Both the position numbers and the translations under genes were made by a program. From an uncultured Candidatus Binatia bacterium (GTDB taxonomy: Bacteria > Desulfobacterota > Binatia > UBA9968 > JAJDTQ01), in assembly GCA_964291295.2 (NCBI GenBank), contig OZ219754.1, forward strand, positions 1,760,001 to 1,824,000: a DNA stretch of 64,000 nucleotides, in the 5' to 3' direction. Below, one piece after another: positions 39,469 to 63,989 of the stretch (the first letter of the stretch is position 1; the number at the start of each line of letters is the position of its first letter). The notes below the pieces were generated by a model that saw only the letters and a program-made list of their open reading frames with translations, was not told the origin of the DNA and searched no databases.

Positions 39469-39668
39469 GATCCTGGCCGGCAAAGCCGCGGGTATTGCAA
39501 CCGCTCGCTGTTTCGGCTATCAGGTATGGGCTGTCCGCTTCGGCCGTGCGCCGGCACGGACATTCTCTCGACCATACCATTCGAGACGGAAGGGTGAGGC
39601 CATGACGAAAATACCGCGCGGTTGTTCGGACGGGAAACACGGTTGCCTCATGCACGCGGGGCCTTCGT

Positions 39669-39691
39669 CCCCCCCCCCCCCCCCCCCCCCC
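39669..39691 (+). repeat. Poly-C tract (C23) between the upstream ATG (39602) and the adhesin ORF; putative phase-variation switch
   Basis: 23 consecutive C. ATG 39602 is out of frame with ORF 39732, and C22 or C25 would fuse them without a stop. Confidence 0.9.
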
Positions 39692-39731
39692 TTCCAACAT
39701 CCACTCTCTCTCTGGGCGCGAGGCTGATCCG

Positions 39732-42700
39732 GTGCGCGCCTCCGCCAGAAGCCCACGACACCTGAGGGCGGGACTGCTCGCCGGCCTCTTCCTGCTCACG
39801 TTCGCCGCCGCCCTCGCGCCGCAGACGGCACAAGCACAGATCATTGATCTCACCGTAACGCCGGGCAACGGCAAGGTCGACCTGTCCTGGAGCTGGAGTG
39901 GCATTACCGGACAAATCAGGTGGCGGTACCACACATTCGGAGCTGCAACCAACAGCGCAACGGTTACGCCTTCCCCAGGGAAGCGAACTGGTACAGCGAC
40001 GATAACTGGTCTGACCAACGGCCAGATATATGATATCGAGATGCGCGCGAGTCGTCCTAGCGGGATTCATATTGGAACTTCCAACCGTGTCAGGGTGGTG
40101 CCGAACGACCTCGTCATCGTGTCCGCCACCGGGCTGGACAGCACAATACGGCTCAAATGGGACTATCAAGGTAGCCAAACCGGCAGTGGCTGGCAACATC
40201 AGACTTTTGAGGGAACAGGCGGCGGCCCATGGAAACAGCTGGCAGACTATTCTGCCGCCCGCGGGGCTGATATTCGAAATCTTGTTAACGGCAGAACCTA
40301 CAATATCGCTATTCGGTATCTGAGCGGCGGGGGCGGCTCCCACGCTGATTCCGTGCTCCACAACATTGGCTGGGTCAGCGCCACGCCGCGGGGGTCGACC
40401 CCGACGCTGGTTTCCGGCTCGAACGCCAGCGCCGCGGTCGAGTCGACCGGGGCGACGACGCTGGTGTGCTACAACCTTCTGGCGGCCTCGCAAGAAACCC
40501 CGCAAGGCTTGGTCAAGTATCTGGAGGCGCGCGCGGGCATGAGCGCCGTGCCTGCGCACAGCGTACTTGCCGATTCGAGTCTCGGCGTCGAGATCACCCA
40601 GGCCCCCGCCGGCATCACCAAGGGGCGCGGCGTCAACCTCAGTCCCTGCGTCAATCTCGGAGTGGGCGCGCATACCGTCACCTGGAGCTGGAAGGGCCGC
40701 GACGGCACTGCCGTGGCCGCCACGACCTCCACCACGATCACCGTGGCGGAGAGGGTCTCCAGTCCCAAGACGATCACGCTGTCGGCGTCCCCGTCGGCCA
40801 CGATCACCGAGGGCAACTCCGGTTCGACGGATGTCACCATCACCTTCACCCTCAGTGAGTCTGCGCCCGCGGGCTTCTCGGTTAGCTTGGGTTATCCCGC
40901 GGACATTGGCACAGCCACTGCCTCCGGCAAGGGATCTAACCCCTGCGATCCGCCTCTGCTTCCGAAGGGCACGGACGTGTGCCTCCCGGACGGCGTTATT
41001 GTCTCCATCGCCGAAGGCGAGACCCAGGGCACGAAGATCGTCCGCATACTCGGTGACACCCGGGAAGAACCGGACGAGACGATAAACCTCATCGGCTACC
41101 AGGACGACTGGGCCACCGGCAGGCTCACCCTGACCATCAGGGACGACGACGAGGGCGCCACCAAACCGGCCAGGCCGAGGGGCCTGTCGGCGGAAGCGGG
41201 CAATGCGCAGGTGGTGCTGACCTGGACCGATCCGGAGGACGATTCGATCACGGGGTATCAGGTGCAGAAGAAGAAGGGGAGCGCGGCCTGGGGCAGCTGG
41301 ACCGACCTCTCCGGTTCGGACGCGGACACCGTGATCCACACGGTGACGAGTCTGGACAACGACAGCGAATACCGCTTCCGCATCCGGGCGAAGAACGGTT
41401 CCGGCAACAGCGCCGCGTCGGCGGCGGTGAGCGCGACGCCGGCTGCCAATCCCAAGCCGTCCAAGCCGGTGCTGACGGCGGTGGCGGGTAACCGTTCGGT
41501 CACCCTGAGCTGGCCCGCCCAGACGAATATCGGGAATTGGGGTTACGAGTACAAGAGCGGGGCCGGCAGTTGGATCGCCAGGACGGTTTCGGACGGCAGC
41601 GCGACAAGCACGGTGGTGACGGGACTGACGGCCGGGACGGAATACACGTTCCGGCTGTTCGCCCGCCGCAGCAGCGGCGGGTCGTACCTTTCGTCGGTGT
41701 GGTCGGACCAGGTGACGGCGACGCCGTATGCCCTGTCGGCGCCGGTGCTGACAGGGGCCACATCGAATGTGGCCAGCTATAGTCTGGGGGTCCAACTGAC
41801 GTGGACCCATAGTGGTGACCTTCTCCCCAGTGGAGCCAGCTGGTTTCATTGGCAGATGGGTTATCGTCTCAAGGGGAGCACCACTTGGCAGGAAACCGCT
41901 CGCACGATCAGTTCGTCGGTACGTTCGGCGCGGACGGTTTCCTGGGAGGGAGGCGGCTACCCCGAGGGTGCGGTGGTGGAGGTGCGGGTCCGGGGACGGG
42001 GGTTGAATGATCAGACTGGCGTCTGGTCCAATATCCGCACGGTGACCCTCAGTGACGATGATGATGACAGGCCAGCCCTGACGTTCACCAGAGCGCCGGT
42101 GACGGTGGAGCCCGGGGCCGCCGCGACCTACACGGTGGCGTTGACGCAGGCGCATGCGGGCACACTGTCGATCGCGAGCGACGACACGGCCACGGCGACG
42201 GTGGACCCGGCGAGCCTGACCTTTACGGCGGTCAACTACAACACGGGTCAGACGGTGACGGTGACCGGGGTCGGCAACGGCACGGCGACGATCAACCACG
42301 CCTTCCGGCTGACGGGAGCTTCCGCGGATGCGATACCGGACGCGGGGACGGTGGACGTGACGGTGGCCGATACGCCGGGGGTGACGGTCTCGACGGCGGT
42401 GCTGACGGTGGTGGAGGGTGACTCCGGCACCTACACGTTGCGGCTGAACAAGGCGCCGTCGAGCGATGTGACGATAAGGGTGGACGGCGCTTCGGGGGAC
42501 GTGACGGTGGCGGGCGCGCCGCTGACCTTCACCACGTCCAACTGGAACAAGCCGCAGACGGTGACGGTGAACGCGGGGACGGACACGGACAATATCAGGG
42601 ATCCCGATGTGACGCTGACCCACAGCGCGGCGGGCGGCGGCTACGGTTCGGTGGGCATCGCCTCGGTGGTGGTGAGCGTGACGGAGAAGGATGTGGCGCC

Positions 42701-53558: not shown

Positions 53559-54842
53559 TCACGAACCGGCGCCCGGGGTCGGGGTGTCGCGCTTGACCGG
53601 CCGTCTGATGAGCAGGGTCAGTCCCGCGCACAGGATCTGCACGGCGACGAAGAGGGTCAGCGGCAGATCGTAGCTGCCGGTGTAGTCGTGGAGGTAGCCG
53701 AAGAACGGCGCCCCGGCGGCGGCGCAGAGCAGCAGGATGGGGACGCTGAGACCGCGGACCGTGCCGAGGGACAGCCGCCCGAAACAGTTGGCCCAGACGA
53801 CTTCCTGAAGCACCTGCGCGCCCCCGAGGCCGGCGCCGTAGAGGAAGAAGGCCGCGTACAGCCACGGCAAGGCATGGGTTCTCAGGGCGATGACGAGTCC
53901 CGCGGCCTGTATCACGAACATCAGCGCGGTGGTTCTGCGGACGCTCACCCGTTCGCTGACAAAGCCCCACAGGAGGCCGGAGCCCAGTTGGGTGGCGGCG
54001 GTGACCGTGACCACGGACCCGGCCCGGAAGTCGGCATGGCCCATGTCGGACACGAAGGGGAACAGGTGCAGGTTGAATCCGGCGACGCCGATGTCCACCA
54101 CGCTGAAGATGAAGGTGATGAGCCAGAAGGTGGAGGTGCGCACGGCTTCCCGCCGGGTCCAGACCACGTCCGTGCGCGGCGTCCGGTCCCCGCGGCCGCT
54201 CTCCGGACGCATGCCGGGTTCCGGGTCGCCGTCCGGATGGAGTCCGATGTCTTCGGGGCTGCGCCGCATCCACACCGCCGCCGGTATCAGGATCAGGAAG
54301 ATCACCAGGGCTCCGAACAGGATCCACAGGTGACGCCAGCCGATGGTGGTCAGGAGGTAGGCGGCCACCAGGGCGATGGTGGTCTTGGAGAGGCCCTGTC
54401 CCAGATGGGCGATGGCCACGGCCCGGCCGCGCTGCCTGACGAACCAGCGGGACACCGTGACGTTGACCACGAAGTAGCACACCAGGGCGTGCCCGATGGA
54501 AACCAGGGCCACCCGGATGACGGTGAACTGCAGGAAGCTCCGGGCGTAGCCCAGCGACACGAAGCCCGCCACCGAGATGACCGCGCCAGTGACCATCAGC
54601 CACCGGGCGCCATACCGATCCAGCAGGGAGCCGATCCACGGCGCCGCGCCGGCGTAGGCCACCAGTTCGAGGGAACGCATGATCGAGAAGGTGCCGCGGG
54701 TGACGCCCAGATCGGCGGTAATGGACTTCATCAGCACGCCGAGGGTGCTGGACAGGTAGAAGGCGCAGGCGATGTTGACCAGAAAGCCGGTGGCGACGAT
54801 GTACCAGCCGTAGAACAGACCGGGTCTTGCGGATTCCTGCAT
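53559..54842 (-). CDS. MFS transporter
   Basis: FYGWYIV, DRYGAR and RWFVRQRGRA motifs; about 12 hydrophobic segments. Confidence 0.9.
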   Translation of the reverse strand: MQESARPGLFYGWYIVATGFLVNIACAFYLSSTLGVLMKSITADLGVTRGTFSIMRSLELVAYAGAAPWIGSLLDRYGARWLMVTGAVISVAGFVSLGYARSFLQFTVIRVALVSIGHALVCYFVVNVTVSRWFVRQRGRAVAIAHLGQGLSKTTIALVAAYLLTTIGWRHLWILFGALVIFLILIPAAVWMRRSPEDIGLHPDGDPEPGMRPESGRGDRTPRTDVVWTRREAVRTSTFWLITFIFSVVDIGVAGFNLHLFPFVSDMGHADFRAGSVVTVTAATQLGSGLLWGFVSERVSVRRTTALMFVIQAAGLVIALRTHALPWLYAAFFLYGAGLGGAQVLQEVVWANCFGRLSLGTVRGLSVPILLLCAAAGAPFFGYLHDYTGSYDLPLTLFVAVQILCAGLTLLIRRPVKRDTPTPGAGS

Positions 54843-54863
54843 TCCTTCGATTCGCCCGGGCGG

Positions 54864-56159
54864 CTAACCGGCCCGTTCCAGGCTCGCCGGGTGCCGGGGC
54901 CGCCGTATCGTGAGCGTCAACGCGGATGAAGCCAGCAGCATGGCGATGAACAGGTAGAACGAGATCCTGTACGATCCGGTGTAGTCATTCACGAAGCCGA
55001 AGAACGGTGGACCGCAGACGCCGCACAACAGCACGATCTGCAGGGCGGCGCCGCGAACCGTACCCAGCGACACCCGGCCGAAGTAGTTCGCCCACATGAC
55101 CTCCTCCAGCACCTGGGCGCCGCCAAGCCCCAGGCCGTAGAAGAAAAACCCGAGGTAGATGGTCGAGAGGTCCTGTGCGGTCGCCGCCACGTACAGCCCG
55201 GCGGCCTCCATCAGAAACAGGAACGCGATGATCCTGCGGACGCGGAAGCGCTCGCCGACGAAGCCCCACAGCAGGCCCGAGGCGGTTTGCGTGCCGGCGA
55301 TCACGGTCATGGTCAGGGCCGCCGGGAACCCGCCGTATCCCAGGTCCGAGACGTAGGAGACGACGTGGAGGTTGAGGCCGGTGATGCCCACGTCCACCAT
55401 GCCGAACACCAGGATGATGAGCCAGAAGGTGGGGGTGCGCCGCACATCCCGCCGCGTCCAGTGAACGTCCGGCTCCGGCGCCCGCGCCCGGGCATGGACG
55501 GTGCCCTTCATGGGTTCGCGTTGGGCGGCGCCGTCGGGATGAAGCCCCATGTCCTCCGGGCTCCGGCGCATGAAGAGGGCCACCGGGATGACGGCGAGCA
55601 CCACCACCAGCACGCCGAACAGGGTCCACACCTGGCGCCAGGCGATGAATGTCAGCAGCCAGCCCACCACCGCGGAGATGGCCACCTTGGCGACGCCATG
55701 TCCCAGGTGGGAAAGGGCCAGCGCCCTCCCCCGCATCCGGACGAACCACCGGGCCACCGTGACGTTCACCACGAAGTAGCAGACCAGGGCGTGGCCGGCC
55801 GCCATCACGGTCATGCGCACGGAGGCGAACTGCCAGAAGTGGGACACCTGACCCAGCACCAGGAACCCGACGGCCGAGAGGGCTGCTCCGGTGACCATCA
55901 TGCGGCGCGGACCGTATTGGTCCAACTTCGATCCCACCCAGGGTGCCATCAGGGCGTAAAGGAGGTGCTCGCCCGACCGCAGCAGCGAGAAAAGCCCCCG
56001 GGACACGCCAAGATCGGCGGTGACGGGCTTCAGAAAGACGCTGAGTGTACTGGACAGGAAGAAGGCGCACGAGATGTTGGCCAGGAAGGCGGCGCCCACG
56101 ATGTACCAACCGTAGAACACGCGCGACCGTCCGGAGCGGTGGAGGGGATCAGAAATCAC
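54864..56159 (-). CDS. MFS transporter (tandem paralog)
   Basis: FYGWYIV, DQYGPR and RWFVRMRGRA motifs. Confidence 0.9.
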   Translation of the reverse strand: MISDPLHRSGRSRVFYGWYIVGAAFLANISCAFFLSSTLSVFLKPVTADLGVSRGLFSLLRSGEHLLYALMAPWVGSKLDQYGPRRMMVTGAALSAVGFLVLGQVSHFWQFASVRMTVMAAGHALVCYFVVNVTVARWFVRMRGRALALSHLGHGVAKVAISAVVGWLLTFIAWRQVWTLFGVLVVVLAVIPVALFMRRSPEDMGLHPDGAAQREPMKGTVHARARAPEPDVHWTRRDVRRTPTFWLIILVFGMVDVGITGLNLHVVSYVSDLGYGGFPAALTMTVIAGTQTASGLLWGFVGERFRVRRIIAFLFLMEAAGLYVAATAQDLSTIYLGFFFYGLGLGGAQVLEEVMWANYFGRVSLGTVRGAALQIVLLCGVCGPPFFGFVNDYTGSYRISFYLFIAMLLASSALTLTIRRPRHPASLERAG

Positions 56160-56397
56160 GGCGGTGCGGGAATCCGGGGCAATTCTGGCTCAGGTTGCAC
56201 TCTTGCGCGAACGGGCTGTGGCAAGCAGGAACCCGGGACCCGGTTCATTCGGGGAAACGTAGGCAATCGCGTCGTCGGAGTCAAACTTTGTCCGGCGTTT
56301 GTTCGGCGGCCGCCGCGGTGATGGCGGTTCGGTCGGCATGACGCCGAGCGGGTTGCCAGAACCATCCCGCGCCGGGGAATGGCGGAAGAACCAGGGT

Positions 56398-56570
56398 ATG
56401 GACGTTTCTCGCTTCGTCAGCCGGCACGCCCGCGCTGATCGAGACCCCCGTCACCGCCCGCACATGACCCCGCCGCCACCCGCCGCCCTTGCGCTCGGTC
56501 TGCGCCGTCAACCATCGAAGTCTCCTGGACAGACGCCCGCTGTTTCTGCCGCCAATCCCCCGCGTGGGAC
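56398..56570 (+). repeat. Conserved upstream element of adhesin locus 2 (homologous to 39284-39468)
   Basis: Colinear shared blocks with locus 1. Confidence 0.8.
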
Positions 56571-56603
56571 AGCCCCGGGATAGCCGCCCGGGCTGTCCCA
56601 CGC
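56562..56603. other. Strong hairpin at the 3' end of the upstream element
   Basis: GCGTGGGACAGCCC(C)GGG ... CCCGGGCTGTCCCACGC. Confidence 0.7.
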
Positions 56604-56619
56604 TGCGTGTCGGGTGCGT

Positions 56620-58210
56620 GGGGGAGAGATTGGGGTGTCAGGCAGTGGCGTTCTTGCGCTATGGCAGATAGCGCGGTGGCAGATAGACATGGGGGGATGT
56701 GGGAACGCATCCGCAAGGGGTCGGGCGCGGTCCACGGTGAGGCACCGGAAGGGTATGCGCTGTGGGAGGTGGGGGAGGGTCGGGTGAAGCCGGAGGAGCG
56801 TTCCCGGAGGAGCGTCCGGACCGGGACGTGCTGATGGACAGGCATCCTTGTCCGGGCTTTCGCGGTCTGGCAGGCCGCGGCCTTCGTCATGCGGCGACCT
56901 TCAGAGGTCGATGGCCGGGCTTGGCGGCGTGGCAGAACGGCGCCTTCAAGTGCCGACCGCGGGACCGTTGGACCGGCGGACGGTCGAAGCAGCCGTTCGA
57001 GCGTCCGGGTCGGATCGCCGACCACACGCGCCTTCTGCTGCTCTCCGAGCCCGGAGTGTTTCCCAACCTTGCCTCCCGTTTCGTGGCGCGCATGACCCGC
57101 TGGCGGGCGGTGCACGGCCATCCGGTGCTTGTGGCCGAGACATTCCACGATTCGGGGTTTTCCGGGGTTGTTTGCGGGCACGCTTTACAAGGCGGCGGGC
57201 CGGGCAGGACCCGTGGGTTAGCGCGCGCCAACGGGCGTTGCACCGACCCCCACGGTTGGCGGAAGGAGACAGGGGTCAAGCCGCTGCGGCCCGACGCCCG
57301 GGCGCGGCTGTCGAACCCGCGTCCGCTGCCGCCCCACGTGGCGCCTCCGGTCGATCCCGGCCTGGCTTCCCGCCACCCGGTGGCGATGCGTTCCCAGTAT
57401 GCCGAACGGGCGGTCGTGCCGGACTTCCGCCGGAACCAGGGCCGGAAGCCCGGGGTGGCCTGCGTGCTCGCCGTGCATGTGCGGTGCCGACGACCTCTTC
57501 CGGGTCAAGGCCAACGCGCCGGACACCTTCCATCTTCTCGCCCGCATTGACTGGGAGAAAGACGCCACCGGCCACTTCGAGGAGGAACTCGACAAGCTCC
57601 CCGGTGGTCCGGAGCCGCGCTCCATCCGCGTCCCGCCCCCGCGCCGGGTCCACTACCCCGGCGTCCGCCAGATCACCCGCCACCGTGAGCCCCTGCGCGA
57701 GGACGGGGACAGGGCCGGGGAAGAACACATGGAAACCGCCCATGTCCTCACCTCCCTTGATGCCGCAGCGGCATCTCCGAGAGACCGGCTCCGGCTCAAT
57801 CGCGGACACGGGGTCGTGGAGAACCGCAACCAGCGCCGGAGGGACTGCGTCTTCGGCGAGGACGCATGCCTGACCGGCATCGGACACGGACCGGCCAACC
57901 GCGCCCGCCTTGACCGCATCGCACTCGCGGTGATCTTCACCAACCGGCGCGACACCGAGAGCTTCACCGAAACCCGCCGACGGCTGCAACTCGACCGGGG
58001 CCAAGCCTTCGCCGCCCTGACCCGGCCACCGACGTCCCGGAACCCCAGCCCCAACCACCCCCGCAGGCCACCCCACCGCCAGGCCCATCCCCGGCTCACC
58101 CGGCCCGGCGCTTATCCCCGGACAGTACCCCTGCACCGACAACCGCATGAAAGGCACCCTACCCCCCTCTGCCCCACTCTCATCCCAACCCCCAGCTTCG
58201 GAAAGTCCTG
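56620..58210 (+). mobile_element. Degenerate ISAs1-family element with an N-terminal DUF4338 (DruA-like) domain; transposase is a pseudogene
   Basis: AFKCRPRDRW, PNLASR, HGHPVLVAETF (DUF4338); PDFRRNQGRK, ADDLFRVKAN, NRGHGVVENRNQRRRDCVFGEDAC (ISAs1 DDE) in shifting frames; right end GGAAAGTCCTG; left boundary uncertain. Confidence 0.8.
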
Positions 58211-58432
58211 GTGTCGGGCGCGGCGCACGTTGAAATCGGCCTGCGGATGGGTTACAGGTTGCACCGATGGGTTTGCTGCGGTCGTGCGGGTTCGGCGCCC
58301 CGATATTCGACAGGAATTCAGGACGGGAGGATGAGATCATGACGGGGACGCCGGGCGATGTCGGGATGCATGACCTGCGGCTGTCCGGGCGGGGCATGAG
58401 CGCCTCACGCGCGCGCGAACCCGAACTCGTTG

Positions 58433-58449
58433 CCCCCCCCCCCCCCCCC
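58433..58449 (+). repeat. Poly-C tract (C17) between the upstream ATG (58339) and the adhesin ORF; putative phase-variation switch
   Basis: 17 consecutive C. ATG 58339 is out of frame with ORF 58461, and C18 or C15 would fuse them without a stop. Confidence 0.9.
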
Positions 58450-58460
58450 GAAAACCGGCT

Positions 58461-61400
58461 GTGGGGCTTAGTCCGGTGGGCGCCCTCGGGAGAACCGCCA
58501 GCCGCCTGAAGGCGGCATTCGCCCTCGTCTTCTTCGCGCTGGTGACGCTCGCCGTGCTCGCGCCGCAGGACGCGCGGGCGCAGCAAAAGCCGGCGCTCAC
58601 GGCAACCCCGGGTGTCGGCAGTGTCACGCTCAACTGGACCCGTACCGGCAACACTGGATTTGGATATTGGGTTTACCGACAGGGGGTCACCGGAGGAGGT
58701 TACGGCGACTGGATCGATATACCGGGCGGCGCCACCATCAGAACCCACACGGTCACAGGGTTGACCCCCGGCACCTCCTATACCTTCCAGGTGGCAAGGG
58801 CGGAAGGTACCGGTCTCAACTTTTCCGTCTTCGCTAGTGGGGGAGGGTACTCGAACGGGGCCACGGCGACGCCAACGGCGGCCACTTCCACCAAGACGAT
58901 CACCCTGTCGGCGACATCGACCTCGATCACCGAGGGCAACTCCGGCTTTACGGACGTGACGGTCACCGTGACGCTCGGCGAGGCGGCGCCGGCGGCGGAT
59001 CCGGATTTGGGGATTTTTTCGCTCTCCCTTATTTCTGCCAGTCCCCCCGGCACGGCCACAGGCTCCAGCAAGGGAGCAAACCCCTGCACGGCGCCGCTGA
59101 ATCCGGCGGACACCGACTGGTGCCATCCGGACGGGGCCAACATCTCCATCGCCGAAGGTGAGACCATGGGCACGAAGAAAGTGCGTATTCTCGCCGACAC
59201 CCGGGACGAGCCGAACGAGACCATCAAGCTCGTTTCTTCGGCTGCGCATCCTGGCTGGACCGACGGCAGCCTCACCCTGACCATTACCGACGACGATCCC
59301 CCCACCACGGCCGTTCCTGCCGCGACAGCGGGACTGGGTTCGGATGCAGGGGATCGGAAGGTGACGCTCATATGGGAGGCTGTCAGGGATTCCAATCCGG
59401 CCATTACCAAGTGGCAGTATCAGCAGAAGACCGGGTTGGCGGCCTACGGCGCATGGACCGATATTTCCAACTCGGCGGAAGGTGAACCCAATAACGGCAG
59501 ATATGTGGTGACGGGTTTGAGCAACGGGACGGAATACAAGTTCAAGGTGCGTGCGGTGAACAGTTCCGGCAACGGTGTGGTATCCAATGAGACAACGGCA
59601 ACCCCCACTGGCAGCAAGACCATCACCCTCACAACCGATCAGCCCAATAACCGTATCACGGAGGGTGATACGGAAAGGAAGAACATAGTCCTCACCGTTA
59701 CCCTCAGCGAGGATGCACCGGACGAGTTTCTTGTCAGCATCAGCTATGGTGGGGGTATCGGCACCCTGGTGGGCAATGATAACGGAGGTTCCGACAACTG
59801 CAGCAATCCGACCCCCGCGACAGCAGATATCTGCTTCCCCGGCGGCCCTTCCGCGAGTAGCCTCCCCATAGAGTCTGGGCAAAGAACAGCCACAAGGACG
59901 GTTGGCATTCTTCCGGACACCTTGGAGGAGGGGGATGAGTACTTCTCCATGCGGGCCAGCACCAGCACAGGGGGCTGGTCGGGCGACTCCATCCTCATCA
60001 CCATTGTTGACAATGATGGCACCACCGCCAAACCCGCCAAGCCCACGGGGTTGTCGGCGGAGGCGGGCAACGGTCAGGTGGAGCTGACGTGGACGGACCC
60101 GGAGGACGATTCGATCACGGGGTATCAGGTGCAGCAGAGGAAGGGGAGCGCCGCCTGGGGCAGCTGGACCGACATTTCCGGTTCGGACGCGGACACCACG
60201 AACCACACGGTGACGGGTCTGGACAACGACAGCGCGTACCGTTTTCGCATCCGGGCGCAGAACGGCGGCGGCAACAGCGCCGCGTCGGCGGTGGTGCGGG
60301 CGACGCCGGCGGAGCCCGCTACGGCCCCCGCCAAGCCGACGGGCTTGGGCGCGACGAAGGGCGACACGTGGGTCTACCTGACGTGGACCGATCCGGGCGA
60401 CGCCAGCATCACCCGTTGGGAGTACCGGCAGAAGGCCGGTACCGGAAACTACGGTTCGTGGATGCGGATGACGGGTTCCGGCGCGGCGACGGTGAAGCAC
60501 CAGATCCCGGGCCTGAAGAACGGCACGGTCTACGCGTTCAGGATTCGCGCGGTGAACGGCAACGGCAACGGCGCGGCGTCGGAGGAGGTGACGGCGACGC
60601 CGAATCCGCCGGTGGCGCCGGTGTTGACGGCAGCCACTTCAACGACCAATCGGAATCTCACGCTGACCTGGACCCATGCCGGCTCGACCGCGGTCGATTA
60701 CATCGACGGCGGGGGTGCCAGCGCCGTCTGGTGGCAAACGGGGCATCGGCTGAAGGGGTCCACCACCTGGACGGCGTACGGCGGGAACGTATCCGCCGCG
60801 AGGGGCAACTCCCGGCGCACCTCGTCGGCGCTCCTCGGCTCCGCTGCTGCCTACCCGAACGGAGCATCGGTGGAGGTGGCGATTCGGGCATCGGGCGATT
60901 CCTTATTGCTGGGCAGGTCGGATGTCAAGGGCCCCTGGTCGAACGAGCGCACGGTCACGTTCATGAACACCGATACGAACGCGCTGACGATCACCGGAGC
61001 GCCGGTGACGGTGGCGCCCGGTTCCACGGCGGTCTACAGGGTGGCGCTGACGAAGGCGTATGCGGGGACGCTGTCGGTCAAGAGCGACGACACGGACACG
61101 GCGACGGTGAGTCCGCCGAATCTGACGTTTACCGCGGACAACTACAGCACGGCGCAGGATGTGACGGTGACCGGGGTCAAGAACGGCACGGCGACCATCA
61201 ACCACGCCTTTCGGCTGACGGGGGCCACGGTGGATGCGATACCGGATGCGGGCACGGTGGACGTGACGGTGGCGGATGCGCCGGGGGTGACGGTGTCGAC
61301 GGCGGCGCTGACGGTGGCGGAGGGCGGCAGCGGCGCCTACACGATGCGGCTGAACACGGCGCCGTCGAGCGATGTGACGATAATGGTGGACGGCGCTTCG

Positions 61401-63989
61401 GGCGACGTGACGGTGGCGAATGCGACGCTGACCTTCACCACGGTCAACTGGAACATGCCGCAGACGGTGACGGTGAACGCGGGGACGGACACGGACACGA
61501 CGCCGGACGCCGCCGTGACGCTGACCCACAGCGCCTCGGGGGGCGGCTACGCTTCGGTGAGCATCGCCTCGGTGGTGGTGAGCGTGACGGAGAGCGGCGT
61601 GGTGCCGGCGAAGCCGACGGGCCTGGCGGCGGCGGCGGGGGACGGTTCGGTGACGCTGAGCTGGACGGACGCGGGCAATCCGACCATCACGAAGTGGCAA
61701 TACCGGCGGAAGGCCGGTGGCGGGGCCTGGGGCGATTGGACGGACATCGGGGGCTCCGGAGCGAGCACCACAAGCTACGAGGTGAGCGGGCTGACCAACG
61801 GCACCGCGTATCAGTTCGAGGTGCGCGCGGTGAACGGTGCCGGCAACGGCGCTGGCCCGGATGCGCCGGTGAGCGCGACGCCGACGGGCGCCACGCCGCC
61901 ATCCACGCCTCCCGGGACAACGCCGACGCCGCCTGCGGCGGTCGGGAGCGGGAGCGTGCGGGTGACGCCGGCGGCGCTGACGGTGGAGGAGGGCGGCACC
62001 GGGAGTTACACGGTGGTGCTGGGTGCGGAGCCCGCGGGGACGGTGACGGTGACGGTGGGCGGGGCATCGGGGGAGGTGACGGCGGTGCCGCGGCGCCTGA
62101 GCTTCACGGTGTCGAACTGGAGCGAGCCGCAGCGGGTGACGGTGAGCGCGGCTCGTGACGCGGACACGGCGGACGACAGGGCGACGCTGACGCACGGAGC
62201 GAGGGGCGGGGGCTATGATTCGGTGAGCATCGCCTCGGTGGTGGTGCGGGTGAGGGACACGACGCCGGTGCTGAGTCTGGAGACGGACCCGGCGGCGGTG
62301 AGCGAGGGGGAGGACATCCGCCTTGTGGTGACCTCGGACCGTGCGCTGACGGGCAATCTGACGGTGAGCCTGACGCTGGCGGCGCGCGACGGCAGCGGCT
62401 TCGATGCGGAGGACCTTCCGGGGGGACTGGGGCCGCGTTCGTTGGATGCGGTGTTCGGCGCCACGGCGAGCCGGAGGGGAGTGGTGATGATCCCCACCCG
62501 CACGGATGGAGAGGTGGAAGGCCGGGAGTCGTACGGCATCAGGCTGAACGCGGCGGAGGGCTATGCGGTGGGGGTGGATGCGGAGGCGGAGGGAGTTCTG
62601 GAAGAGGGTTCGTCGGAGGGGGCGGATCGGGTGAACCGTGCGATCCTGCCGCAGGTGGCGGCGATGGCGCTGTCGCAGACGCTGGAGGCGGTGACGAGGC
62701 GGATCGAAGCGGTGTCGGATGGCGGTGTGGGCGGTGCGGTGCGTTTTGGAGCGGCGCCGGGGAAGGCGGTGGAGGAGGAGTGGGTTGGCTTGGGAGACCC
62801 GGGGCAACAGGGACCGGGCTTGCGGGAGATGCTGGACGGGGCCTCCTTCGCGCTGCCGCTGGGTGCTTCGGGGGCGGGAGGGGCGGCGGTGCCGGCGTTG
62901 TGGGGAGTGGGCGAGTGGCGGTCGCTGTCGGGTTCGGAGCGGGATCTTTCCTGGGAGGGCGGGCTGTGGTCGGGGTATCTGGGGGCGGACGTTCGGGTTC
63001 GCCCGGACCTGCTGGCGGGGGCGGCGGTGTCGTATGCGAAGGGCAAGGTGGATGCGGTGTCGAAGAGGGGCGACCGGACGAAAAGCAGGCACGAGAGCCG
63101 GGTGGTGTCGGTGAATCCGTATCTGGCGTGGCTGCGTGCGGACGGCACGACGCTGTGGGCCAGCGCGGGTTACGGGAGGGGCGAGGTGCGGATCGCCGAG
63201 GCGGGAGCGGCGGCGCGCACGGCGGACCTGTCGCAATGGAGTGGGGCCGCGGGCGGGCGCGGGGTTCTGATGGAGGATACGGAGATCATTGCCGGGGGCA
63301 CCACGCGAGTGGCGGTGAAGGGGGAGGGCTCCCTGGTCCAACTGGGCACGGAGGCCGGCGACGGTCTGACGGAGTTGACGGTGAAGGCGAGCCGACTGCG
63401 GCTGATGCTGGAGGGGTCGTGGGAGCACCGGGTCGGGGGCGATGCGACGCTGACGCCGGCACTGGAAGTGGGCGTGCGTCATGACGACGGCGACGTTGGG
63501 CAGGGCGGCGGGGTGGAGGTGGGGGCCGGCGTGATCTGGCGCGACCCGGGTGCCCGTCTGACCGCGGAGTTGCGGGCCCGGATGCTGGCGGTGCACGAGC
63601 GGGACCGGAAGGAATGGGGCGTGAGCGCCCTGGTGATCCTGGACCCCGGGGCGGACGGTCGGGGGAGCTATCTGAGCTTCGGCCCGGCCCACGGTCGCAC
63701 GGAAAGCGGTGTGGGGGGGTTGTTCGACTACGGTCCGGCCACGGACAGCGGGGCGGGGGCGGAGGAGAGCCGTCTGGAGGCGGAGCTGGGGCACGGCATC
63801 GGCATCGCCGGCCCGGCGCTGCTGACGCCTTATGCCGGGCTCAGCCTGGCGGAGTCGGGCGAGCGCACGCTGCGCCTGGGTGCGCGCTACCGCTTGGGGT
63901 CGGGGGTCGCCCTGGGAATCGAGGGCACAAGCCGGCCCTGGACCAACGGCGAGCAGAGCCTCATGCTGCGCGGTGCGCTGCGCTGGTGA
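58461..63989 (+). CDS. Large FN3/Calx-beta-like repeat surface protein with C-terminal autotransporter-type beta-barrel (adhesin 2); true start probably 58339 across the poly-C tract
   Basis: Signal peptide ending ARA-Q; FN3 repeats; two TITEG modules; C-terminal ~1000 aa nearly identical to adhesin 1; terminal ..LRW. Confidence 0.85.
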   Translation: MGLSPVGALGRTASRLKAAFALVFFALVTLAVLAPQDARAQQKPALTATPGVGSVTLNWTRTGNTGFGYWVYRQGVTGGGYGDWIDIPGGATIRTHTVTGLTPGTSYTFQVARAEGTGLNFSVFASGGGYSNGATATPTAATSTKTITLSATSTSITEGNSGFTDVTVTVTLGEAAPAADPDLGIFSLSLISASPPGTATGSSKGANPCTAPLNPADTDWCHPDGANISIAEGETMGTKKVRILADTRDEPNETIKLVSSAAHPGWTDGSLTLTITDDDPPTTAVPAATAGLGSDAGDRKVTLIWEAVRDSNPAITKWQYQQKTGLAAYGAWTDISNSAEGEPNNGRYVVTGLSNGTEYKFKVRAVNSSGNGVVSNETTATPTGSKTITLTTDQPNNRITEGDTERKNIVLTVTLSEDAPDEFLVSISYGGGIGTLVGNDNGGSDNCSNPTPATADICFPGGPSASSLPIESGQRTATRTVGILPDTLEEGDEYFSMRASTSTGGWSGDSILITIVDNDGTTAKPAKPTGLSAEAGNGQVELTWTDPEDDSITGYQVQQRKGSAAWGSWTDISGSDADTTNHTVTGLDNDSAYRFRIRAQNGGGNSAASAVVRATPAEPATAPAKPTGLGATKGDTWVYLTWTDPGDASITRWEYRQKAGTGNYGSWMRMTGSGAATVKHQIPGLKNGTVYAFRIRAVNGNGNGAASEEVTATPNPPVAPVLTAATSTTNRNLTLTWTHAGSTAVDYIDGGGASAVWWQTGHRLKGSTTWTAYGGNVSAARGNSRRTSSALLGSAAAYPNGASVEVAIRASGDSLLLGRSDVKGPWSNERTVTFMNTDTNALTITGAPVTVAPGSTAVYRVALTKAYAGTLSVKSDDTDTATVSPPNLTFTADNYSTAQDVTVTGVKNGTATINHAFRLTGATVDAIPDAGTVDVTVADAPGVTVSTAALTVAEGGSGAYTMRLNTAPSSDVTIMVDGASGDVTVANATLTFTTVNWNMPQTVTVNAGTDTDTTPDAAVTLTHSASGGGYASVSIASVVVSVTESGVVPAKPTGLAAAAGDGSVTLSWTDAGNPTITKWQYRRKAGGGAWGDWTDIGGSGASTTSYEVSGLTNGTAYQFEVRAVNGAGNGAGPDAPVSATPTGATPPSTPPGTTPTPPAAVGSGSVRVTPAALTVEEGGTGSYTVVLGAEPAGTVTVTVGGASGEVTAVPRRLSFTVSNWSEPQRVTVSAARDADTADDRATLTHGARGGGYDSVSIASVVVRVRDTTPVLSLETDPAAVSEGEDIRLVVTSDRALTGNLTVSLTLAARDGSGFDAEDLPGGLGPRSLDAVFGATASRRGVVMIPTRTDGEVEGRESYGIRLNAAEGYAVGVDAEAEGVLEEGSSEGADRVNRAILPQVAAMALSQTLEAVTRRIEAVSDGGVGGAVRFGAAPGKAVEEEWVGLGDPGQQGPGLREMLDGASFALPLGASGAGGAAVPALWGVGEWRSLSGSERDLSWEGGLWSGYLGADVRVRPDLLAGAAVSYAKGKVDAVSKRGDRTKSRHESRVVSVNPYLAWLRADGTTLWASAGYGRGEVRIAEAGAAARTADLSQWSGAAGGRGVLMEDTEIIAGGTTRVAVKGEGSLVQLGTEAGDGLTELTVKASRLRLMLEGSWEHRVGGDATLTPALEVGVRHDDGDVGQGGGVEVGAGVIWRDPGARLTAELRARMLAVHERDRKEWGVSALVILDPGADGRGSYLSFGPAHGRTESGVGGLFDYGPATDSGAGAEESRLEAELGHGIGIAGPALLTPYAGLSLAESGERTLRLGARYRLGSGVALGIEGTSRPWTNGEQSLMLRGALRW

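Follow-up and report, generated by a model that had tools for sequence, protein, structure and literature searches.

The stretch of DNA analysed here, hereafter the window, comprises 64,000 nucleotides (nt) of contig OZ219754.1 from an uncultured Candidatus Binatia bacterium, and this study concerns a long poly-C tract in the leader of one of its genes, adhesin 2, which we examined as a candidate phase-variation switch. All features of the adhesin 2 locus described below are on the plus strand. The open reading frame (ORF) of this gene is listed as 58461-63989 and encodes 1842 amino acids (aa), and the preprotein as defined by the start that is conserved among its relatives spans 58476..63989. 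The passenger contains five FN3 stretches (Pfam fn3, E=6.5e-45), and a search with the last 429 residues matched the Autotransporter beta-domain PF03797 at 62904..63506 with an E-value of 1.3e-11 and 45.2 bits against a cut-off of 26. The barrel probably runs on to the C-terminal ...LRGALRW, and a PDB sequence search with the same 429 residues returned no relative. A Sec signal peptide, MGALGRTASRLKAAFALVFFALVTLAVLAPQDARA (58476..58580), is predicted from reading the translation by eye; it shows a basic n-region, a hydrophobic core and an AxA motif with cleavage after ARA, ahead of Q, and it is conserved across homologues. On this domain evidence the gene product is predicted to be a classical type Va autotransporter with an FN3-rich passenger, and it is from the autotransporter/FN3 architecture that we infer the label 'adhesin'. 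With the C-terminal 330 aa as a tblastn query, 13 places in the genome were detected at an E-value of 1e-50 or better.

Upstream of the signal peptide of adhesin 2 lies a run of 17 cytosines (C17, 58433..58449), which sits internally in the 3.65-Mb contig. Only two C runs of at least 10 nt are present in the window, namely this one and a C23 run at 39669-39691, and overlapping C10 matches number 22 against 2.23 expected, a count that was reached by none of 100 shuffles. The C17 run surpasses the length from which homopolymers are considered hypermutable in contingency loci, which is about 8-9 nt or more for G/C. The tract is embedded in a leader ORF that opens with ATG 58339, 8 nt behind the strong Shine-Dalgarno (SD) sequence GGGAGG (58325..58330), and is reached 94 nt downstream of this ATG. 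At the recorded tract length the leader ORF (58339..58509) has 56 codons plus a TGA stop codon at 58507-58509, reads the tract as five prolines and ends 31 nt within the adhesin ORF. Its translation is MTGTPGDVGMHDLRLSGRGMSASRAREPELVAPPPPPENRLWGLVRWAPSGEPPAA, which includes the predicted leader peptide stretch MTGTPGDVGMHDLR; in fact, any reading frame translates the C run as proline. The adhesin frame is open from 58374 to 63989 and is closed upstream by TGA 58371-58373. Since the distance between ATG 58339 and position 58476 is 137 nt, which is 2 modulo 3, the two frames are joined by the gain of one base (C18) or the loss of two (C15). An earlier note on this DNA had described the ATG behind GGGAGG with an ORF running through C17 to 58509, an adhesin frame that is open through the tract and closed upstream by the TGA at 58371, and the restoration of a continuous ORF by C18 or C15, and all of this was found to be correct.

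The start codon that is conserved across the family, as judged from an alignment of family starts, is GTG 58476 (58476..58478) and not GTG 58461, which lies in the same frame. The tract is located 26 nt upstream of this conserved start with its signal peptide. Between the two lie a weak G-rich SD-like GGGG (58463..58466), 9 nt ahead of GTG 58476, and a TAG (58469..58471), 4 nt ahead of it, which would end the leader ORF at C16 or C19. The TGA at +31 of the adhesin ORF (58507..58509), in the -1 frame, is the leader stop at the recorded C17. When nine leader regions from the same genome were aligned, eight were found to share the block G[GA]GGCT[GT]A..CC[GA]-GTG directly ahead of the signal peptide; the ninth (T697078) is without this start block and looks like a remnant. 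A start-anchored set of 34 loci, 8 from the same genome and 26 from other genomes, was then reduced to 25 distinct 72-mers. Among these distinct sequences the internal start codon is GTG in 22 and ATG in 3, and a G-rich SD-like run occupies positions -12 to -9, with G invariant at -12 and -10 in all 25. A stop codon at -7 to -5 is likewise present in 25 of 25, being TGA in 24 and TAG in the window copy only; the window TAG is two substitutions away from TGA, yet it is still a stop. Positions +31, +32 and +33 are T, G and A in 24, 25 and 24 of the 25 distinct sequences, with the full TGA in 23. As read from the sequence, this layout would allow restart after translation of the leader, or independent initiation, so that 'out of frame' need not mean 'off'.

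The same arrangement recurs well beyond the window. An alignment of the N-terminal 75 aa was used to search a one-genome-per-species collection and yielded 35 loci, 24 of which have a C run of at least 9 nt together with the start block, while six are without a tract and five were missed by the first pattern. Altogether, a cassette with the order leader start, poly-C of 9-33 nt, linker, SD, stop at -7, GTG or ATG, and signal peptide was found at 32 loci, 8 in the same genome and 24 in other chromosome-scale metagenome-assembled genomes (MAGs). The earlier note had seen the tract at an equivalent position in two paralogs and had argued for selection on the tract itself, a view that is strengthened by its recurrence in 8 paralogs of this genome and 24 other loci at lengths of 9-33. 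The linkers between tract and start measure 25-66 nt and are not multiples of three. At 27 of the 32 loci an SD-preceded ATG or GTG opens an ORF that stays open to the tract, and these leaders fall in at least four unrelated sequence classes; the remaining five loci are without an open leader ORF.

The outcome of the 27 open leader ORFs falls almost entirely into three registers: 9 are fused to the adhesin frame, 8 stop at -7, 9 stop at +31 and only 1 stops elsewhere. By sequence, tract length thus selects between a fused ORF, a leader that stops 4 nt ahead of the start and a leader that runs 31 nt into the gene before it stops. The +31 register is that of the window copy. Paralog 1, the cassette at 39602..39734 (plus strand) that carries the C23 run, is in the -7 register; it consists of leader ATG 39602, the tract at 39669-39691, GAGG at 39720-39723, TGA at 39725-39727 (-7) and GTG 39732, and its leader ORF ends at this TGA, out of frame with the GTG 39732 start and not fused. 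Two other paralogs of the same genome are fused (T896843 with C17 and T3071512 with C15), and a third, T3343886, has C14 and is in the +31 register; the latter is 97.4% identical to T3071512 over 8 kb. Indeed, paralogs with the same flanks vary in tract length in each of four groups (15, 14; 19, 16, 20, 19; 16, 17; and 15, 17, 17). Leader lengths in one class are 84, 90 and 96 nt, and four of the differences in length are 6-nt, frame-preserving insertions or deletions (indels). The survey of homologues for poly-Pro or poly-C leaders that the earlier note had called for shows both forms: of 48 family proteins in the database, 28 have gene calls that begin at the internal start (MGALGRTARRLKAG...), 20 carry a fused N-terminal extension and 18 of these 20 contain a run of 3-11 prolines. 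One further locus (G000:C1:2349145-2349572) has a C21 run about 260 nt upstream of another family-type signal peptide; its linker is different and longer and is open in the adhesin frame, and we regard it as a variant architecture.

To compare the two candidate ribosome entry sites, duplex energies were calculated with the organism's own anti-SD sequence, all five of the five examined 16S genes ending in CACCUCCUU. In the window, the leader SD reaches -14.7 kcal/mol and the internal SD -5.3 kcal/mol. Over the family the means are -11.9 and -8.0 kcal/mol, respectively, and the leader SD is the stronger one in 22 of 25 loci. As a control, 1500 random 17-mers from the genome gave a median of -4.2 and a 1st percentile of -13.3 kcal/mol, and the window leader SD lies beyond this 1st percentile. 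Because the leader duplex is far stronger than the internal one, the models mark the upstream ATG as the main ribosome entry, and the internal start as weak when left alone. The earlier note had favoured the upstream start over GTG 58461. The duplex energies agree with it as far as ribosome loading is concerned, although the conserved GTG 58476 had been overlooked.

Taken together, these observations make it very probable, in our view, that the run is a slippage-prone expression switch, one of about 35 such runs in the genome. With moderate confidence we favour the interpretation that it operates as a slipped-strand contingency switch at the level of translation, in a leader common to this family of FN3 autotransporter adhesins. 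Transcription would begin upstream of the leader, and ribosomes would load mainly at the strong SD and ATG 58339 and read the C run as prolines in any frame, so that tract length modulo 3 would set where they end. At C15, C18 or C21 the leader would be fused to the adhesin frame, giving an N-terminal extension of about 46 residues (137 nt plus one base at C18) that signal peptidase would remove along with the signal peptide. At C16 or C19 leader translation would end at TAG 58469-58471, 4 nt ahead of GTG 58476, a termination-reinitiation geometry that would lead to the normal preprotein. At C14, C17 (the recorded length) and C20 leader ribosomes would overrun the weak start and stop at TGA 58507-58509, 31 nt past it. 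The fused and -7 registers would be productive and yield identical mature adhesin, and the +31 register would be low or off. Replication slippage on the 17-nt run would cause cells of all three registers to coexist.

A simpler scheme is a strict two-state frameshift, in which the adhesin is made from ATG 58339 only, GTG 58476 is merely a valine codon, C15, C18 and C21 are 'on' and C17 is 'off'. The strong leader SD and the weak internal SD, notably in the window, would fit this scheme, as would the frequent occurrence of fused forms among homologues, and NalP, AusI and NanH3 operate in this way in the available accounts of these systems. It would leave unexplained, however, why no codon other than GTG or ATG occurs at the internal position and why a stop lies exactly 4 nt upstream of it in 25 of 25 distinct sequences. 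Moreover, about 46 residues including a proline run would precede an otherwise canonical 35-residue signal peptide, and this extension matches neither the ESPR nor another Pfam family. A Pfam scan at E-values up to 10 with the first 100 residues of a fused paralog and with the 31-residue window leader detected no ESPR match, and the only Pfam match of the leaders was OppC_N at the chance level of E=0.092. Lastly, a homologue without the tract and the leader ATG (P0005, see below) keeps its ORF. We therefore consider the strict two-state scheme unlikely. For the phase switch on adhesin 2 that the earlier note had proposed, this means that the hypervariable element in the leader stands, but that a simple on/off switch with only C18 and C15 as 'on' states is unsupported.

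The C run could also act irrespective of frame, as RNA or through the nascent chain. The adhesin would then always be made from GTG 58476 and the tract length would set the level, like a volume control. The tract could do so by pairing with the internal SD, by serving as a C-rich site for Rho loading, or by making the leader ribosome stall on polyproline and thereby expose the SD; with a run of this length, slippage during transcription would obscure the frame in any case. Thermodynamic modelling has the internal GGGG paired for the most part with the C tract in 15 of 24 loci, and in 21 of 24 the internal SD is less accessible than it is when the tract is replaced by random sequence. For the window the models have the SD 97-100% tract-paired at C17 and longer, and the reading of the run as proline in all three frames would suit a frame-independent stall. 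In addition, rut sites are described as lying where C outnumbers G and the RNA is poorly structured, and ribosomes on an upstream ORF (uORF) are known to shield them, as in tnaC, speFL, cruR and mgtL (PMC12360218). However, the modelled pairing varies with the folded segment, the unpaired value of the window SD being 0.02 in one and 0.28 in another, and G runs in GC-rich RNA pair with something in controls too. The overall fold is no better than that of shuffles, and a search of Rfam at E-values up to 1 matched no family to the leader, the sole match being a chance rydB fragment outside the element. Frame-independent control leaves unexplained the conserved leader starts, the -7 and +31 stops and the frame-preserving indels. 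As the principal mode of action we judge it quite unlikely; masking of the SD by the tract is a possibility that the models raise.

The translational switch that we favour places the tract within the transcribed leader. A promoter-like block consisting of TTGAAA (58230-58235), 17 nt and TACAGG (58253-58258) is recognizable by its conservation (58230..58258) in paralogs of the same genome and in the loci L021, L029, L031, L042, L046 and L048, and would put the transcription start near 58265. A strict scan of 58000-58600 for sigma-70 promoters and terminators calls no site, and no sigma-70-like pair flanks the tract, so that this promoter is proposed from conservation. A clearer picture is provided by the distant homologue L038, where the upstream DNA is AT-rich and a canonical TTGACA-17-TATTAA precedes the leader ORF; this short ORF is followed by C13, GAGG, TGA at -7 and ATG. 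With a promoter located ahead of the leader ORF, the tract of L038 is placed in the transcript and not in a promoter spacer, and the tract of the window would likewise lie within the transcribed leader. Consistent with this, a promoter-spacer role for C17 was rejected, the tract being downstream of the leader start codon.

The distribution of the family was examined next. Of 27 other genomes of the genus, 3 were matched by a leader DNA query, weakly and over short lengths, and three of the five matches were the C run itself; a protein query consisting of leader plus signal peptide gave none at an E-value of 1e-8 or better. With these two queries the adhesin family was thus not found in the 27 genomes. 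The family is multi-copy in chromosome-scale MAGs that are labelled as different classes and phyla, and the 16S sequences of four of those genomes are 82.3-83.5% identical to that of the genome studied here and 77.9-84.8% identical among each other. Over window positions 58452-58891 the DNA identity is 95-95.9% to L018 and L019, 91% to L024 and L025, and 88% to L020. Taking L018, L019, L024, L025, L020 and L026 together, the adhesin 5' module of the window is 87-96% identical in DNA to these loci, with mosaic block ends at 58891 and at the tract. Homology between loci often starts exactly at the tract. The paralog T586116 (G000:C1:585915-586132) is 100% identical to window 58433-58650 for 218 nt from the tract onward; upstream of its tract, which is C19, it has an unrelated and frameshifted leader. 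In this paralog the tract coincides with a recombination or gene-conversion boundary. The identities between genomes suggest that the 5' module may have been recently exchanged between distant lineages, across classes or phyla.

The adhesin tracts are part of a larger set of homopolymers. In the 3.65 Mb of the genome, G/C runs of 7, 8, 9 and 10 nt number 114, 15, 7 and 2, none is 11 nt long, and 35 measure 12-27 nt, which makes the length distribution bimodal with a gap at 11 nt. Eight to nine of the long runs are located ahead of FN3 autotransporters and five lie in the 5' coding part of TbpB_B_D-type genes. Four runs show a cttgacagt-G15-17-taaagt geometry, and the two adjoining ORFs that were scanned both contain a TbpB_B_D domain; several runs with a TTGAC-G18-TATGGT or related promoter geometry adjoin genes for RTX-repeat proteins. 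Judged by their neighbour genes, the 35 long runs look like a classical set of contingency loci. Of 18 other genomes of the genus that were sampled, 15 also have runs of at least 14 nt, some of which are at contig ends and may be artefacts.

Several members of this set deserve mention in their own right. At least ten poly-G runs are located between a TTGAC-type -35 and a -10 of the TATGGT, TAAAGT or AGTATA type, with a spacer of about 17-18 nt; examples are found at G000 C1 positions 1209581, 1268213, 1431620, 1847782, 2164767, 2553056, 667172 and 699787. They are preceded by the common motif TTGGACAAG..CTTGAC and adjoin genes for RTX-repeat and TbpB_B_D-domain proteins, and by their geometry they would be classical promoter-spacer switches. 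Five paralogous genes of about 600 aa (G000:C1 351886, 874052, 1555359, 2270508 and 2799053) carry C16-22 runs 90-226 nt from the listed start, vary in tract length although their flanks are common, and encode, in the sole copy that was scanned (2270508), a C-terminal TbpB_B_D beta-barrel domain. An Eco57I/MmeI-like restriction-modification methylase gene (G000:C1:2285151-2287412, minus strand) contains a G13 run at 2287382, 18 nt after the listed start, which makes it a candidate phase-variable methyltransferase ('phasevarion').

A number of observations weigh against the proposed switch. Firstly, the tract length of 17 is an assembly consensus value and homopolymers of 15 or more are error-prone. 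The statement of the earlier note that the gene is 'currently out of frame' therefore describes the assembly and not cells, for which the consensus register says little. In three public runs from one study, which are stored as contigs, no contig spans the tract with 31 nt of flank to either side; the contigs stop or start there, a break that is explained by paralogs sharing one flank. Secondly, exchange and descent among the loci mean that the 32 loci are not independent and that the counts overstate the support. Likewise, the block from -20 to +45 is nearly invariant across the distinct sequences and the conservation of the -7 stop is therefore not independent of its surroundings. Thirdly, the census gives no hint of a favoured register, since the counts are 9:8:9, and the same would be seen if the lengths were noise. 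Fourthly, most leader substitutions are non-synonymous, and the pooled GC contents at codon positions 1/2/3 are 0.65/0.62/0.73 for the leaders and 0.63/0.59/0.84 for the adhesin ORF; neither is decisive because the coding signal of the leaders is weak. Nor is the whole leader more stably folded than shuffles (z = +2.45, with all 200 shuffles folding at least as well). Finally, some leaders are frameshifted or have no ATG (T586116, T5012, L021 and L024), and in the homologue P0005, where an ORF of 1980 aa is kept, the tract is down to about four C and the leader ATG has been substituted (...EVITGTPGDVGMHDL...ELVAPQESGRGAEPVGALGRT...). The latter suggests that an internal start could work alone, and P0005 may be a 'locked' copy that relies on it.

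Some of these points would be accommodated if the tract had no function at all, being a homopolymer mis-call or a neutral hot spot in a mobile, recombining family whose gene is simply expressed or dead. The recorded length is an assembly consensus, some fragmented relatives have G/C runs at contig ends, as artefacts would, and the homology blocks that often start at the tract may mark recombination joints. On the other hand, the run is internal to the 3.65-Mb contig, and 32 loci in several genomes have a run at this position, between conserved flanks that look functional. The bimodal lengths, with nothing at 11 nt, also argue against neutrality, as neutral long runs are expected to decay, and other runs with the TTGAC/TATGGT spacer geometry adjoin genes for surface proteins. 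We consider the absence of function very improbable.

Beyond the slipped-strand switch as set out above, one may envisage the cassette as a translational gearbox with three heritable states, in which two roles fall to the C run. As RNA it would mask the weak SD and as codons it would force a polyproline stall upon the leader ribosome at this mask, so that adhesin synthesis would depend on the leader and possibly on EF-P, with slippage altering both the stall length and the stop site. The module would be exchanged between co-habiting classes or phyla as a portable 'plug' that makes any passenger phase-variable. We put this forward as a long shot.

Two further features border on the element. An imperfect hairpin, GCATGAG-CGC-CTCACGC (58394..58410), with 6 of 7 pairs in the window, lies within the leader. 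Its core is present in 14 of 34 loci, where one position varies as T-A, C-G or T-G in a compensatory manner; other loci are without the core or have a broken stem, so that the hairpin was rejected as a general part of the cassette and is best regarded as an optional element. The region of about 2 kb upstream of adhesin 2 (56200-58300) contains long ORFs on both strands that have no Pfam match, and is flanked by two genes for major facilitator superfamily (MFS) transporters (53562-56159, minus strand) and by the adhesin cassette.

Textbooks describe homopolymer phase variation for a handful of cultured pathogens. In the present case, dense homopolymer tracts (35 in 3.65 Mb) are seen in uncultivated high-GC bacteria that are known only from metagenome assemblies, and among open-access papers we found none on homopolymer phase variation in such MAG lineages and none that joins a homopolymer tract with leader-ORF coupling. 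If the proposed switch is real, these organisms vary their surface stochastically, which would point to selection, for instance by a host, by phages or by grazers, and gene calls such as a long or short N-terminus or a 'pseudogene' would be artefacts of one consensus length. A practical caution is that a distribution of tract lengths, and not one length, should be given for such assemblies. Furthermore, a module that is up to 96% DNA-identical between genomes with about 83% 16S identity provides a tractable case of the exchange of a control cassette across deep lineages. The architecture departs from the classical cases by a leader ORF ahead of the signal peptide, a second start, a stop 4 nt before it and very long tracts.

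Among known systems, the homopolymer switches of Bordetella fim and of Neisseria opc and porA are of the promoter-spacer type. They resemble the present case in that poly-C or poly-G tunes surface proteins, and other loci of this genome show the arrangement TTGAC-G18-TATGGT, but C17 is downstream of a leader start codon and not between a -35 and a -10. Poly-C switches are established in the autotransporter genes NalP and AusI (PMC5472700), which share with adhesin 2 the type Va class and poly-C slippage, with about one third in-frame expected if the state is random. Their tract is described as being inside the protein-coding part, where out-of-frame lengths truncate the product, whereas here a separate leader, equipped with an SD and an ATG of its own, carries it ahead of the signal peptide. 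Compared with that description, a conserved second start with a stop 4 nt ahead is present here between tract and signal peptide, and the tracts are much longer (9-33 nt). An intragenic switch of the NalP/AusI type was accordingly rejected for adhesin 2, since the tract is 26 nt upstream of the conserved start and the downstream adhesin ORF is intact whatever the tract register.

Repeats directly after the start codon are reported for AutA and AutB (PMC5472700), and badE of Bartonella, a host-associated alphaproteobacterium, has an A9 that follows the start codon directly, as well as a G9 (PMC11466379). In these genes, too, the repeat is found at the very 5' end of the gene for an autotransporter adhesin and is presented as a contingency locus; the types and lengths of the repeats differ from ours, and the descriptions, within the sections that bear on the repeats, mention no internal restart architecture. 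The NanH3 sialidase of Gardnerella has a poly-C of 8-14 by the region coding for its signal peptide, with homopolymer sequencing error given as a caveat (bioRxiv 10.1101/2020.09.16.300947). As in the adhesin family, the NanH3 tract is described as lying between an upstream start and the main part of a secreted protein, and the annotated N-terminus is long or short depending on tract length. In that description, however, the NanH3 signal peptide is upstream of the tract and out-of-frame variants lose the enzyme, while here the tract comes first and the signal peptide follows it with a start of its own.

Translational coupling occurs at overlapping or adjacent stop and start codons, and the anatomy that goes with it, namely a stop close to the next start, at the end of an upstream ORF that has an SD and a start codon to itself, is present in the adhesin cassette, the stop being used in one of the three registers. 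Control by a leader ORF is documented for tnaC, speFL, cruR and mgtL (PMC12360218). In such systems, as would be so for the leader described here, the position of the ribosome on a short translated leader governs the next gene; a stop within a few nucleotides of the next start and a weak, possibly masked downstream SD are further points of resemblance. The known cases treated there sense a metabolite or an ion, whereas the input to the adhesin leader would be a heritable, stochastic change in tract length.

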